Virus record (IMG/VR): IMGVR_UViG_3300037761_000122 | Location: 1-46,046 of that record | DNA length: 46,046 nucleotides | Strand: one strand, 5' to 3' | Source of the DNA: a virus | Part shown: positions 6,600 through 46,046 of the stretch, piece by piece | How positions within the stretch are numbered: the first letter of the stretch is position 1 | Layout: every line of letters begins with the position of its first letter | Program-made: the position numbers and the translations under genes | The notes under the pieces: generated by a model | What the model saw: only the letters and a program-made list of their open reading frames with translations | What the model was told of the DNA's origin: nothing | Databases searched by the model: none

Positions 6600-7162
6600 G
6601 TCGAACCTCCTTCCGCTTCGGGGGTGGCGAGGGCCGCATAGAGCACAAGCGTCCGGCCTTTCGCTTTCGGGTAGTCATAGATCGCATTGCACCAGTGCGC
6701 TTCCGCCACCTTCTCTGATTCGTGCATTACCGGCGAGCGGATCCAGCCCCGTCCGTCTCCCCAATCGACCTCGGCCATCCATGCGACCGCCTCCCTCTCG
6801 GGCTCCGCTGCCGTGGGGGCGGGGACGTAAGCGTTGACCGCAGCGACGATGAAGTCAGCATCAACGCCGTTCATGTCGGCGCTGATGACGTTGTCGTCCG
6901 CGTCCACCAACTCGGTGTATGTCAGGTCGTTCTCGAAGAGGCGCTCAACTCTCACCGGCCTCGGGATCGGGCACTCCCCTGTCTCGGCGGGCTCGGGAGC
7001 GGTGCCAGAGAGGCGGCCGACCTCGGCGCAGAGGGCTTCGATTGTGTCGGCGGCCTCGGTTAGCGCGTCGCGATGAACGCGGTCCATTGCTGCCTCGATC
7101 ACGTCTCCCGCGTCGTAGTCGAGATGCCGAAGCCTCTCCACCACGTCTCGTGTATCAGCCAT
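6596..7162 (-). CDS. Hypothetical protein with the shared TRDVxERLR...EAADxIEAL N-terminal domain
   Basis: 188 aa. The N-terminal ~45 aa are paralogous to 12228..12578, with visible DNA-level similarity. Confidence 0.6.
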   Translation of the reverse strand: MADTRDVVERLRHLDYDAGDVIEAAMDRVHRDALTEAADTIEALCAEVGRLSGTAPEPAETGECPIPRPVRVERLFENDLTYTELVDADDNVISADMNGVDADFIVAAVNAYVPAPTAAEPEREAVAWMAEVDWGDGRGWIRSPVMHESEKVAEAHWCNAIYDYPKAKGRTLVLYAALATPEAEGGST

Positions 7163-7541
7163 CGGTGTCGGCCTCCTCCATCTCCTCTCGGGTAGCGAGG
7201 GAGCGCGCTAGGGCATTCCTCGCGATGTCACGCATGTCAGTAGGGGTCACACCAGAGCGACGAACCTCATCTGGATCGTAGTTGGCGATCGTGTATAGTG
7301 CCTCCCGCAGATGATCCACCTCCTCAACCATGGCGCGAACAGGCATATCGGCCCCCGGCTCGGCGGGCTCGGGAGCGGAGAGCAGGGCGAGGACTTCGGC
7401 CTTGTGCTTCTTGCAGCGCTCCATCGTCTGCTCTTGCCGCTCGGCGGACCCATGCTCGCATTCCTCCATGCCAGCTTCGAATGCCGCCGTGTCGATTCGC
7501 TCCAACAGCACCCGCACCCGCTCCCGCAGATCCTCGCTCAC
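7155..7541 (-). CDS. Hypothetical protein
   Basis: 128 aa from the GTG at 7541 (GTGA overlap with the upstream stop at 7538). Confidence 0.5.
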   Translation of the reverse strand: MSEDLRERVRVLLERIDTAAFEAGMEECEHGSAERQEQTMERCKKHKAEVLALLSAPEPAEPGADMPVRAMVEEVDHLREALYTIANYDPDEVRRSGVTPTDMRDIARNALARSLATREEMEEADTDG

Positions 7542-7822
7542 GACCCCAGCACCCCCGACCCGACCGCAACCAGCAACGTCGCGACGATCACACCGAGGAC
7601 CACAAGCACACCTGTCAGCACACCTGTCAGCACACCGAGCCGGACGAAGCGGCGCCACTCGGGGAGCGTCTCCACGTCGTCCCATGTGGACGTCGCGCGC
7701 ACCACTCCATCGTCCACGTCGTCCGGTAGGTACGATGCGAGCCGAATCTGCGTGGCCTCGGCGGCGGCCAGCGTCTGACGGTCCGGGTGGGTGACGCGGC
7801 CGTTCGTGTGGACGTCGGTCAT
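7538..7822 (-). CDS. Membrane protein with C-terminal TM region
   Basis: 94 aa. GGAGGTG RBS. The TM segment GVLTGVLTGVLVVLGVIVATLLV includes a 12-bp tandem duplication at 7609..7632. Confidence 0.6.
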   Translation of the reverse strand: MTDVHTNGRVTHPDRQTLAAAEATQIRLASYLPDDVDDGVVRATSTWDDVETLPEWRRFVRLGVLTGVLTGVLVVLGVIVATLLVAVGSGVLGS

Positions 7823-12231: not shown

Positions 12232-12578
12232 GGGGTCGGGGGCTCCGGCAGGGGTTGCCAGTGGGTGACGTTCGTGAGATTGCCCGCGTGCTTGCTGTCG
12301 TCGTACCACCGCCCGTTGATTTGCTTCGCCACTGACATCCACCGGCGGCCCCTGAACCCGATGCCCGTGATAAGCACTTCGGTCCGGTCCTTCGGCGCCG
12401 TCTCGATCGGCTGCCACTCTGCGAGGGAGCGCAGGCGCTCGGCGCGGAGGGCTTCGATCTCGTCGGCGGCCTCGGAGAGCACGTCACGATGCGCGCGGTC
12501 GAGGACAGAAGAGATCACGTCCCCTACGTCGTGATCGAGGCCCCGAAGCCGTTCCGCCACGTCTCGTGTCTCAACCAT
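12228..12578 (-). CDS. DUF551-like protein with the shared TRDVxERLR N-terminal domain
   Basis: 116 aa. N-terminus paralogous to 6596..7162. C-terminal WQPIETAPKD...THWQPLPEPP resembles DUF551. Confidence 0.6.
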   Translation of the reverse strand: MVETRDVAERLRGLDHDVGDVISSVLDRAHRDVLSEAADEIEALRAERLRSLAEWQPIETAPKDRTEVLITGIGFRGRRWMSVAKQINGRWYDDSKHAGNLTNVTHWQPLPEPPTP

Positions 12579-13017
12579 CGTCGATCTCCGTCACACCCCG
12601 GTGTTCGTCAGTGTCCCACGCGGAAATTCGCCCCGGCCTATTCGCGAAGTCGCTCGCGTCCTCCGTGCTGTCAGGGAGGGGGAGAAGCAGCGCGGGGACC
12701 ATGTCCACGCCACCGGTCTGGTAGAGGAACACGTGACCGTCAGCCGCCATGTCGTTGCCCAACGCTTCGACGACCGGCAAGCCCCATAGCGATCCATCCT
12801 CGACCCACCCCACTACAACATCCGCCCGCATCTTGCGGACGAGCGCGAGGGCGGCGCGGGCGTCGTTCACCACTTCCATGTCGCGGTCGTAGCGGCGGCA
12901 CATGGCGGGGTGGTCCCTTAGTAGCTCGTACCTGCTATCGAGTTCTGCCGCAAAGTTGGCAATGACCGCCCCCAGCGCTTCCTCGACGACCTCCAGGGGG
13001 TTGCGTGGCTCAGTCAT
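12571..13017 (-). CDS. Hypothetical protein
   Basis: 148-aa ORF. Its first 19 nt are duplicated at 13249..13267. Confidence 0.6.
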   Translation of the reverse strand: MTEPRNPLEVVEEALGAVIANFAAELDSRYELLRDHPAMCRRYDRDMEVVNDARAALALVRKMRADVVVGWVEDGSLWGLPVVEALGNDMAADGHVFLYQTGGVDMVPALLLPLPDSTEDASDFANRPGRISAWDTDEHRGVTEIDDG

Positions 13018-13235
13018 TCGGCACCCCCCAGGTCACCGTCGAAGACCCTCAAAACCTCGCGACGGAGCCGGCTACGTTCCTGGGTGCGAGCACCAAACAA
13101 GGCGCTGTCCACTTCGCCGGTCGCCACGGACTGCACGCCCCGGATGTGCAGGATCGCATCCACGATCGACTGCACGTCGTCGGTGCGAATCGGTCGCTCC
13201 AGTACCACCGTCAGCGTGTTGACCCTGTCGGTCAT
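13014..13235 (-). CDS. Hypothetical protein
   Basis: 73-aa ORF with ATGA overlaps at both ends. Confidence 0.55.
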   Translation of the reverse strand: MTDRVNTLTVVLERPIRTDDVQSIVDAILHIRGVQSVATGEVDSALFGARTQERSRLRREVLRVFDGDLGGAE

Positions 13236-13267
13236 GGGTAGTAGCCCCGGTTGCGTGGCTCAGTCAT
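13232..13267 (-). repeat. Junction fossil: 11-codon mini-ORF built entirely from two duplicated gene-boundary sequences
   Basis: 13232..13249 equals 13935..13952 (18/18). 13249..13267 equals 12999..13017 (19/19). The minus strand reads ATGACTGAGCCACGCAACCGGGGCTACTACCCATGA. Confidence 0.85.
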
Positions 13268-13293
13268 CGTTTCATCCTCGGGGTGGTCGTTCA

Positions 13294-13368
13294 TGGGGCC
13301 GGTGGGATTCGAACCCACATGTTCCGGGGTAAAAGCCCGGTCCGTTGCGCGGTTACGGTCACGGCCCC
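13294..13368 (-). tRNA. tRNA-Lys (anticodon UUU), non-canonical D-arm
   Basis: Acceptor GGGGCCG/CGGCCCC, anticodon arm CCGGG-CUUUUAC-CCCGG, T-arm GTGGG-TTCGAAT-CCCAC, discriminator A. The D-stem pairs poorly (3 bp). Confidence 0.75.
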
Positions 13369-13938
13369 TCATTGTCCTCTCGCGGCTTGCACGGCATGGA
13401 AGTCGTCGGGGTCGCCGCCACGGTCCGGGTGGGCCGCGAACAACGCGTCTCGGACGGAGCCGTATTCCGCGATCAGGTCCCGCCCGCGCTGGATGACTTC
13501 GGGCCTATTCTCGGTCGTGCCGCCAGCGGGGGGGAGGGCCTTCCATCCCGTGTACTGCTCACCGCGCTTCGTCACCCCATAGCGGTCCACCTTGCGGAGC
13601 GCTTCGAGTGCGAGTGCGATGGCCCGGACGTTGTCCTGCCAGCCGTCGAAGCGGTCGCAGGGGTAGGAGAGCGGGCCGTGTCGCGAGTCGAAGGTCAGGA
13701 TGACGCCGGGATGCGCAGGTCGAGCGTTCGCACGGACCCGACCGTCCAACCGGATCTCGTCGTCCGTGATCGGCATCTGGAGCACCGTGTTCTTGGCGCT
13801 CAGGTTGCGTAACTCTCGCTCTAGCAGACGCACGGTCGCAGTCCAGCTCGTCCGAAATGGCGACCGCTTGCGGCTCCGCGTCAGGTCGCCCGGCCATTGG
13901 CGGATGGGAACCACCTTCCAGGGCGCGTCGTAACTCAT
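13369..13938 (-). CDS. J-domain (DnaJ-like) protein
   Basis: 189 aa from the ATG at 13938 (ATGA overlap). C-terminal J-domain signature HPDRGGDPDDF. Confidence 0.7.
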   Translation of the reverse strand: MSYDAPWKVVPIRQWPGDLTRSRKRSPFRTSWTATVRLLERELRNLSAKNTVLQMPITDDEIRLDGRVRANARPAHPGVILTFDSRHGPLSYPCDRFDGWQDNVRAIALALEALRKVDRYGVTKRGEQYTGWKALPPAGGTTENRPEVIQRGRDLIAEYGSVRDALFAAHPDRGGDPDDFHAVQAARGQ

Positions 13939-14513
13939 GGGTAGTAGCCCCGATATCGAGGATCGCCGTTGTAGTAGGTCGAGGGCGGGCCGTGCGGGTC
14001 CGGATCGCCGAACTCGGTCGCCACCCACTCATCGCCGATCTCGTTCCACGTGTGGTCGATCCAGGCGGCGCACTTCTCCAGGTCGAGCGGCGGGTGCGCG
14101 GCCTCGAACGTCCGGCGTCCGACGCGGTGCAGCTCGGCGTGGTGGCCGGCGGGGCCGGAGCACAGGCGGGAGATGCGCGAGTGATGCGCCTTCCGTCCGG
14201 TGCCCTCGGTCTCGATGTGGGCGTTGTCACACTCCGTCCGGTAGCAGCCGGGCACGTCGCAGCGGCCACCGCGCTTGACCCAGATCACTCGCTCGATCGA
14301 GCCGTAGACCCGGTGCCACTCCTCGGCCTCACGCTCCTCGTCATGCCGGTAGCGCTCGTGGATGCCCTTGTCGTGTTCGATGCCGGCGGCCTCGAGGGCC
14401 TCCCACAACTCGGAAGACTCTCGGTGCCAGCGGCCTCGCTTCAGCGGGGTGCGGCGGGCGAGATCGGACGCTCGGAGCGGCTTCTTGCCGCGGGCCAGGG
14501 GCGTCTTCCTCAT
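13935..14513 (-). CDS. HNH-like nuclease (NinG/Rap-like architecture)
   Basis: 192 aa from the ATG at 14513. Basic N-terminus MRKTPLARGKKPLR...PLKRG. Cys/His cluster CDVPGC...CDNAHI...LC...HHAELH. Confidence 0.5.
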   Translation of the reverse strand: MRKTPLARGKKPLRASDLARRTPLKRGRWHRESSELWEALEAAGIEHDKGIHERYRHDEEREAEEWHRVYGSIERVIWVKRGGRCDVPGCYRTECDNAHIETEGTGRKAHHSRISRLCSGPAGHHAELHRVGRRTFEAAHPPLDLEKCAAWIDHTWNEIGDEWVATEFGDPDPHGPPSTYYNGDPRYRGYYP

Positions 14514-15079
14514 ACCATGGCCTCGTGCGCTCTGCGGCAACTGCGATGGTGGGCCTGGCGACCGTAGACGTACATAGCTGACGGGCTATCCCACTCCCTG
14601 CAGTAACGGCAACGCCTCCAGTCCGCATTTCCGCAGGCTTGGTGCGCACGCGCGCGACGCTCGATCAGGCAATGGTATGCGTGGTCCTCGCAGAGGACGA
14701 GGTTGCCGCGGCGGTTATCGTCCCGGATGCCGTTCACGTGGTGGACTTCGTGACAGGGGTCGAAGTGGCGGCCGATTGCGCGCTCAGCGATCAGCACGTG
14801 TTCCGCCACGTACCCGCGCATGTTCGCGCGCGGGTGGTCCGGACGATGAACTCGCACGTAGCCGTCGGCCATGTTCACGCGTCCGCCGTTCCACCTGTAA
14901 TGGCGCCGGCCTCGGGGCACCGGTGCATGGCCTCGTACGTAGCGCACGGGCTCGCCCTGAACGTCTCCTCGCCCGCTGCGGGTCTGCTTGGCAATTGACG
15001 TCATGCGCCCACATCCGCAGTGACAGCGCCCATAAGGGATCTGCGACGATGGCGGGTGCCTCAATCTTGCCCGGCTCAT
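14510..15079 (-). CDS. HNH endonuclease (HNH_3-type)
   Basis: 189 aa from the ATG at 15079. GYVRVHRPDHPRA...GYVAEHVL...EVHHVNGIRDDNRRGNLVLC. The upstream part of the 421-aa ORF is a shadow frame over the exonuclease gene. Confidence 0.8.
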   Translation of the reverse strand: MSRARLRHPPSSQIPYGRCHCGCGRMTSIAKQTRSGRGDVQGEPVRYVRGHAPVPRGRRHYRWNGGRVNMADGYVRVHRPDHPRANMRGYVAEHVLIAERAIGRHFDPCHEVHHVNGIRDDNRRGNLVLCEDHAYHCLIERRARAHQACGNADWRRCRYCREWDSPSAMYVYGRQAHHRSCRRAHEAMV

Positions 15080-45919: not shown

Positions 45920-46046
45920 AGCCGCTTGACGTAGTCGGCTACTTCGGCGGGCTTGGAACCCGGCGCGGGGTAGTGGTCCCCGCGTGTCTCTTTGAGTCTG
46001 GCACGAACGTCAGGCGCGGGAGGCGCCTGGTTCAGCTAGAGTCTGA
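45920..46046. repeat. Terminal direct repeat, copy 2 (circularisation overlap)
   Basis: Exact 127-nt identity with 1..127. Confidence 0.97.

Follow-up and report, generated by a model that had tools for sequence, protein, structure and literature searches.

In the viral genome IMGVR_UViG_3300037761_000122, the full IMG/VR record of 46,046 bases and 66.5% G+C that we call the window throughout, two gene cassettes stand in tandem in the early operon, one made of a J-like gene and a tRNA-Lys(UUU), the other of a single gene of 73 amino acids (aa). They are joined by an 11-codon open reading frame (ORF), which consists of the start of one flanking gene fused to the end of the other. We propose, with a probability of about three in four, that an unequal crossover guided by microhomology stacked two alternative cassettes at this site. 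The stretch that separates the HNH-like gene from the 148-aa-family gene would then be a variable slot in related high-GC temperate phages, probably of actinobacteria. The features involved, from 5' to 3' in the sense of transcription, are as follows.

13935..14513, minus strand: HNH-like gene (DUF968/Ref-type), 192 aa; its last 18 nucleotides (nt), including the ATGA, are copy h1 of an 18-mer (13935-13952).
13369..13938, minus strand: gene for a J-like protein, 189 aa, phrog_9210; its start overlaps the HNH-like stop (ATGA).
13294..13368, minus strand: tRNA-Lys(UUU), its first base directly after the stop codon of the J-like gene; discriminator A, no encoded CCA.
13268..13293, minus strand: spacer of 26 nt from the tRNA to the mini-ORF, with a Shine-Dalgarno-like GAGG 8 nt upstream of the mini-ORF ATG.
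13232..13267, minus strand: hybrid mini-ORF, the putative recombination joint; copy m1, at 13267-13250, repeats the opening 18 nt of the 148-aa gene, and copy h2, at 13249-13232, the closing 18 nt of the HNH-like gene.
13014..13235, minus strand: 73-aa gene of unknown function, a mobile module, 91% identical to its homologue in relative B (see below).
12571..13017, minus strand: 148-aa gene; its first 19 nt are copy m2 of a 19-mer (12999-13017).

The initial annotation, made from the letters of the window, had described an 18-mer and a 19-mer that recur around these genes. Both are exact: the 18-mer at 13232-13249 is identical to 13935-13952, the 19-mer at 12999-13017 is identical to 13249-13267, and the two motifs abut at the joint, where the single base 13249 is common to both. 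In Markov-chain genome simulations (orders 1, 3 and 5), exact direct repeats of at least 18 nt are expected 0.005 times per genome within 1 kb and 0.07-0.24 times anywhere. With up to three mismatches allowed, each motif still has exactly two copies, for expected values of 0.03 and 0.01, and none of 100 shuffles reached two. The two repeats are far above chance. The mini-ORF was also as first described: MTEPRNRGYYP*, 11 codons from 13267 to 13232, combines codons 1-6 of the 148-aa gene with the five final codons of the HNH-like gene and its stop. It retains the ATGA coupling signal, its stop overlapping the start of the 73-aa gene (13235 to 13014).

A comparison with related phages, which the annotation had suggested, yielded arrangements that lack one or the other cassette.

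Relative B (IMGVR_UViG_3300037478_000353): HNH-like, 73-aa and 148-aa-family genes, contiguous through ATGA overlaps.
Relative A (IMGVR_UViG_3300037470_000141): J-like gene, then the 148-aa-family gene through an ATGA; no tRNA and no 73-aa gene; a different HNH-type gene of 114 aa upstream.
G003, a third relative: HNH-like gene ~2.9 kb upstream of the 148-aa-family gene, with several small genes between; a 73-aa homologue elsewhere.

These single-cassette arrangements suggest that one variable slot is occupied either by the J-like gene (with its tRNA) or by the 73-aa gene, and that the window has both. Relative A is moreover an empty site for the tRNA: the order J[ATGA]148 of A corresponds in the window to J[ATGA], tRNA, 26 nt, [ATGA] and the first codons of a 148-aa gene. 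This order is the remnant expected from a donor that carried the J-like gene, the tRNA and an intact 148-aa gene. The J-like genes of the window and of relative A are 97% identical in amino acids and 91% in nucleotides, and it is at the J start and close to the J stop that homology between the window and relative A breaks off.

The repeats might instead be functional elements, that is, start-associated translation or regulatory motifs kept by selection, as both copies of the 18-mer lie directly 5' of start codons (those of the J-like and 73-aa genes). We hold this to be extremely improbable, and a start-associated regulatory motif was rejected, given that there are two copies per motif only, even at three mismatches. 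Each motif is, in addition, the native end of a conserved gene in the relatives, and an exact-pattern scan of IMG/VR found the 18-mer of the HNH-like end only in relative B and in two unrelated contigs. The same type of scan gave 60 matches for the motif of the 148-aa start, 58 of them in unrelated sequences, and 0 matches for the hybrid junction itself. A transposon or insertion sequence with target-site duplication was also considered and rejected: there are no inverted repeats around 13250-13934 and no transposase, and this segment contains the J-like gene, the tRNA and a fragment of a neighbouring gene.

Compared with the B-type arrangement, the window carries a foreign patch of ~1.05 kb.

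13250..14305, minus strand: foreign patch, its left limit approximate (within ~15 nt).

The patch comprises the C-terminal two-thirds of the HNH-like gene, the J-like gene and, after the tRNA and the spacer, the 18 nt that open a 148-aa gene. Identity between the window and relative B is 87-100% over the first ~200 nt of the HNH-like gene (14513-14318), 50-70% at 14303-13982, 87% over the last ~30 nt of the gene and ~93% from 13253 onward, just past the joint. Across 13250, the identity to relative B thus changes in an abrupt step (from 50-70% to ~93%), and homology to B restarts inside the h2 part of the mini-ORF. To the left, the patch begins within the HNH-like gene, in homologous sequence; to the right, it stops at the mini-ORF joint.

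At the joint, the 13 nt directly 5' of the exchange point, compared in fixed register, read GAGCCACGCAACC in the 148-aa gene and GATCCTCGCTACC in the HNH-like gene of relative B, a match of 10/13 with a background probability of 3e-4; the exact bases common to the two partners at the joint itself number 1-3. Both 13-nt stretches begin at codon position 1 and encode (E/D)-P-R-(N/Y). Because this homeology is in equal codon register, a crossover guided by it would automatically be in frame, and the intact hybrid ORF would follow from the register, without luck or selection. Beyond the 13 nt, the two partners (a gene start and a gene end) are non-homologous, so that the joint does not sit in a longer shared sequence; the left crossover, in the 5' block of the HNH-like gene, may lie within sequence common to both partners. 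The annotation had placed the recombination at stop-start junctions, which is accurate for the boundaries between the HNH-like and J-like genes and between the J-like gene and the tRNA, both at ATGA, and inaccurate for the mini-ORF crossover, which is internal to both genes, 18 nt from the end of each.

That the record was assembled from a metagenome, and that the cassettes are alternative alleles of one slot in the relatives, are the grounds for suspecting that the contig joins two co-occurring strain variants with one cassette each. We nevertheless judge such a chimera very unlikely. Graph assemblers misjoin at shared k-mers, yet the partners have only the above few exact bases in common, and the joint is in frame, at codon-register homeology, as a biological event would give. 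The record also carries an exact 127-bp terminal direct repeat (1-127 = 45920-46046), in keeping with its IMG/VR class (direct terminal repeats, 100% complete). The length of a terminal overlap is commonly a sign of the assembler's final k, and the 127-bp overlap would suggest a large k for this record. A circular path in an assembler with a final k of 127 also yields an overlap of 127, and the terminal overlap of the window need not be a physical terminal repeat.

The crossover reading would proceed as follows. One lineage would have had the order HNH-like, 73-aa, 148-aa and another the order HNH-like, J-like, tRNA-Lys, 148-aa, and two such genomes would have recombined in a single double exchange to give the window. 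The left crossover would have been an ordinary homologous exchange in the conserved 5' portion (~200 nt) of the HNH-like gene. The right one, at the 13-nt homeology, would have placed codon 6 of the donor 148-aa gene directly before the fifth-from-last codon of the HNH-like gene in the recipient. The expected product has both cassettes in tandem, an in-frame 11-codon joint and each parental gene end twice. The phage itself encodes an ERF annealase and a YqaJ exonuclease, 2 kb upstream of the joint region, and these may have catalysed the exchange.

As any unequal exchange duplicates its flanks, the repeats are consequences of the event, not its substrates, and since the hybrid ORF must be derived, the event is a gain. 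The annotation had left open whether the cassette was gained or a duplicated block was lost: a gain that stacks two alternative cassettes is what the comparison favours, and relative B is not a simple deletion derivative, because its HNH-like C-terminal domain is only 50-70% identical to that of the window while the 73-aa segment is ~93% identical. The broader proposal, a scar of module shuffling by recombination, survives in its core with the support of the single-cassette relatives, although its stop-start location, its direction and its codon details had to be revised. The repeat pairs are still identical and the hybrid is found in no other IMG/VR record, which fits a fairly recent and private event. 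The repeats may also allow a later loss: an exchange between the 18-mers would restore the B-type order, and one between the 19-mers the J-tRNA-148 order.

An equal final topology would result from two intragenomic steps, in which a B-type genome underwent a tandem duplication of the HNH-like end, the 73-aa gene and the 148-aa start by slipped or unequal sister exchange, and the first 73-aa copy was then replaced by the J-like gene and the tRNA through exchange at short flanking repeats. The 18- and 19-nt repeats and the conserved blocks around them could have served as annealase flanks in such a replacement. This course of events is unlikely in our view, as it requires two rare events and not one, leaves unexplained why the HNH-like C-terminal domain changed allele jointly with the J-like gene, and presupposes a tandem 73-aa duplication that is present in no relative.

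Several observations weigh against the crossover that we favour. The full donor arrangement (HNH-like allele, J-like gene, tRNA, intact 148-aa gene) was not found in IMG/VR, in the metagenome collection or in the genome collection. When the 148-aa start is compared with the HNH-like end of the window itself, the match falls to 8/13 (p 0.012). The conservation of the 5' third of the HNH-like gene could come from functional constraint and not from a recent crossover; either of the two genomes may have been the backbone and the other the donor; and the translational-relay role considered for the mini-ORF (see below) is based on a modest Shine-Dalgarno score only.

Relative A adds a second case at the same gene ends. 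The 16 nt directly 5' of its J start match A's own 148-aa start at 14/16 positions (shuffle p 0.0007), and this match breaks within 1 nt of the break point in the window. In A, J-cassette sequence takes over at a shared ACCC, the same four bases with which the HNH-like tail of the window ends. A derivation of this J-upstream spacer from the HNH-like tail was tried and rejected as the worse fit (~8/12 vs 14/16 for the 148-aa start). The 114-aa HNH-type gene upstream (L006 2388-2744) is devoid of the C-terminal tail of the family and stops on the TGA of the 148-start remnant; as its TGA belongs to this remnant, relative A carries a hybrid joint of its own. On these alignments, the start of the 148-aa gene and the 3' terminus of the HNH-like gene appear to have recombined at least twice, independently in the window and in relative A.

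Such recurrence could also reflect nuclease-stimulated exchange, in the manner of a free-standing homing endonuclease: the adjacent HNH/Ref-type nuclease would cut in or near the conserved 148-aa 5' block of naive phages, repair would copy the nuclease gene together with the J-like gene and the tRNA, and the hybrid would be an aberrant repair joint. The foreign patch indeed runs from the inside of a nuclease-type gene to the 148-aa 5' block, relative A also has an HNH-type gene, a different one, directly 5' of its 148-start remnant and J-like gene, with the break within 1 nt of that in the window, and the family of the RecA-dependent nuclease Ref is matched by some members of the HNH-like family. 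With two cases only, however, microhomology (ACC / ACCC) between the gene ends explains both equally well, the window protein has no significant match to a nuclease family, and there is no cleavage-site evidence; we therefore rate this explanation as clearly unlikely.

The scar may have a role at present. A scan for promoters and terminators over 12500-14600 gave no signal, so that the tRNA would have to be cut from the operon transcript, which would separate the J-like gene from the genes downstream. The predicted duplex with the 16S 3' end is -8.0 kcal/mol for the mini-ORF; the starts of the J-like and 73-aa genes, at -5.0, are no better than the background, which averages -5.35. Ribosomes that load at the mini-ORF would reach its stop in the ATGA shared with the 73-aa gene, where re-initiation could follow. 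We thus infer, from sequence, that the mini-ORF may relay translation into the 73-aa gene through the ATGA overlap.

Two further frames were seen at this place. The mini-ORF is the 3' portion of a 46-codon open frame (13372 to 13232) that reads through the whole tRNA gene; its ATG overlaps the stop of the J-like gene (ATGA) and it ends on the ATGA of the 73-aa gene, and ~44% of such frames are open by chance at this G+C. Because this frame is open, the chain of stop/start overlaps is unbroken on the unprocessed RNA. Between the tRNA and the mini-ORF, a three-codon frame, ATG-AAA-CGA-TGA (13265-13276, minus strand), has a stop that overlaps the mini-ORF ATG. An AAA codon, very rare in this phage, thus stands directly 3' of the tRNA that reads AAA, which is probably a coincidence.

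The tRNA gene itself is sound. ARAGORN called it with anticodon ttt and the Rfam model RF00005 matched it at full length (56.8 bits for a gathering score of 29, E 8e-12). The D-arm, which the annotation had thought weak, has a D-stem of four perfect pairs, and the oddity is instead a D-loop without GG. No tRNA stands beside the J-like gene in 26 viral J loci, the tRNA-Lys is absent from relatives A, B and G003, and no close relative of the window tRNA was found in IMG/VR (pattern scan, 0 matches) or in isolated phages. In relative B, a borderline tRNA-model match (G002 contig 346-406, 61 nt, 29.1 bits), without an ARAGORN call, may represent a tRNA fragment of the attP type.

The annotation had linked this tRNA to AAA codons that would be rare in a high-GC host, to be compared with those of the phage late genes. 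The 48 likely genes of the phage contain 20 AAA and 263 AAG codons (~2 AAA per 1000 codons), and the AAA codons are not concentrated in the late genes. As AAA is nearly absent from the phage's own genes, supplementation of a rare codon is a weak rationale for the tRNA. In phage T5, a tRNA-Lys counteracts PARIS AriB, a tRNA-cleaving defence (PMC11464382). Like the T5 tRNA-Lys, the window tRNA is phage-borne, has an anticodon stem-loop unlike that of typical host tRNAs and answers no need indicated by the phage's own codon usage. Unlike T5, which has a large tRNA set, the window phage has a single tRNA, and nothing in the window points to a defence context. By this analogy, a counter-defence role of the T5/PARIS kind would be a lead only. 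It enters a wider scenario, in which the ends of the HNH-like (3') and 148-aa (5') genes would form a recurrent exchange site, possibly nuclease-stimulated, where cassettes would be repeatedly gained and lost, with a defence-evading tRNA-Lys among the cargo, so that the early operon would hold a small cassette array driven by a recombinase or a nuclease; we find this scenario unlikely.

Among the individual genes, the HNH-like gene has its closest homologue (P0001) at 88% identity, on a contig of 11,599 bp, a length shared by the contig of the 148-like protein P0014. The homologues P0001-P0005 have the C-terminal tail ...DPR(Y/D)RGYYP in common with the window protein; P0005 has an identical tail, although its identity over the remainder is only 37%. 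The window protein has no match in Pfam or PHROG. Across eight members of the family, DUF968 is matched by three (best E 4e-5), HNHc_6 by three and RecA_dep_nuc by two, and residues C85, C90, H99 and C118 are invariant. The sole PDB match of the family profile is marginal (the HNH domain of a group II intron maturase, E 0.05). The label HNH-like is supported at the level of the family only, the window protein itself having no significant match to a nuclease model.

The J-like protein has a conserved N-terminal domain of unknown function, followed by a C-terminal segment that corresponds to helix II, HPD and helix III. The HPD residues (H170, P171, D172) are invariant in 19 homologues, and the top PDB matches of the family profile are >40 J-domains, aligned over the helix II-HPD-helix III segment (best E 3e-4). 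The Pfam DnaJ model (PF00226) does not match the window protein even at E <= 10, and the protein ends ~17 residues past the HPD, short of a full four-helix J-domain. The earlier name of J-domain gene is thus right at the profile level (HPD, PDB matches), without a complete domain or a Pfam DnaJ call behind it, and the protein is best seen as a J-like C-terminal segment on a larger conserved domain (phrog_9210). The same family is annotated as 'DnaJ-like chaperonin' in phages of Gordonia, Microbacterium and Mycobacterium (SEA-PHAGES; phrog_9210); these proteins are 48-53% identical to that of the window and have the C-terminal HPD segment, but only ~45 residues are J-domain-like and the Pfam DnaJ model makes no call. 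A metagenome scan with the J-like protein returned 80 loci, the best at 59% identity, and no close donor.

The 73-aa gene has a homologue in G003 (74-81% identical), which has unrelated neighbours and again an ATGA overlap. The 148-aa family (including P0007-P0016) is strongly mosaic: the N-terminal ~15 residues, a central stretch of ~20 residues and an acidic C-terminal end are conserved, and the blocks are separated by unrelated inserts of very different lengths, some of them Cys-rich. The HNH-like tail and the 148-aa N-terminal block are boundary sequences that recur in otherwise divergent members of their families. In the slot of G003 (L004 3452-4686), several consecutive small genes have similar acidic tails, …T/S-T/G-G/E-D-D-D-A/E, like the 148-aa C-terminus, and conserved gene ends may be a general trait of this operon.

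Between ~11.5 and 17 kb, every gene lies on the minus strand, in one densely packed early operon where ATGA stop/start overlaps couple most adjacent genes. The order in the sense of transcription is given below.

Start of the operon, minus strand: ERF annealase, YqaJ exonuclease, HNH_3 endonuclease, HNH-like gene (14513 to 13935).
Middle, minus strand: J-like gene (13938 to 13369), tRNA-Lys(UUU) (13368 to 13294), 26-nt spacer, mini-ORF (13267 to 13232).
End, minus strand: 73-aa gene (13235 to 13014), 148-aa gene (13017 to 12571), DUF551 gene, RusA-like gene.

The host is probably an actinobacterium, as judged from the G+C content and the relatives of the J family. Genome-collection scans with the HNH-like protein and with an alignment of the 148-aa family found no prophage relative, hence no host, and a megablast of the region against isolated phages gave no match.

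Other gene-end modules are repeated in this genome. The DUF551 gene (from 12578) and a 188-aa gene (7162 to 6596) are paralogous over their first ~47 codons only (~78% nucleotide identity; 7022-7164 vs 12438-12580, minus strand), and the remainders of the two genes are unrelated. Relative G003 also has this block twice (L004 5833-5908 and 6439-6475). The region of the paralogous 5' module holds two more exact direct repeats of 20 nt, one with its copies separated by 376 nt (6983-7002/7359-7378) and one in tandem with a 12-nt period (7605-7636).

Mosaicism at gene boundaries, boundary sequences and illegitimate or homeologous recombination are established in phages (PMC3029335, PMC2327257). The nearest precedent is in mycobacteriophage Island3, where a comparison of genes 67/68 with Brujita revealed an extra gene flanked by a duplicated gene 3' end (PMC3029335, PLoS One 2011, Hatfull group), read by the authors as recombination at short boundary sequences of closely related actinophages, with gain and loss equally possible when judged by the repeats alone (PMC3029335). 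The window likewise has an extra gene flanked by a duplicated gene end. In Island3, however, a single repeat of ~50-60 bp was probably the substrate of homologous exchange, whereas the two interlocking duplications of 18-19 nt in the window are products. The window joint, unlike that of Island3, links a non-homologous gene start and gene end at a 13-nt homeology and leaves a chimeric mini-ORF, and the single-cassette arrangements of its slot are preserved in extant relatives.

Phage annealase/exonuclease systems such as lambda Red and Rac RecET recombine diverged sequences and very short homologies (PMC2327257), and 5-13 bp suffice for RecET (PMC2327257, Martinsohn, Radman & Petit 2008). As in lambdoid mosaicism (PMC2327257), the window has a high-identity patch bounded by a less similar 'shoulder', with an annealase/exonuclease pair as the likely catalyst. 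It differs from the lambdoid cases in that the recombinase would be an ERF-family annealase with a YqaJ exonuclease, and in that one end of the patch is an unequal join that duplicates sequence instead of replacing it.

Altogether, the window joint is ordinary phage mosaicism in an unusually clean example, and no new kind of element. Mosaic joints have usually decayed, but this one is intact at single-base resolution, with duplicated flanks that are still identical. The case would show that alternative cassettes can be stacked instead of swapped, and that an in-frame join with translational coupling kept is possible without selection for either. It is suited as a teaching or benchmark case and offers a substrate pair for short-homology recombination by ERF and YqaJ, while the lone tRNA-Lys(UUU) in a phage nearly without AAA codons is a small lead toward a counter-defence role of phage tRNAs.

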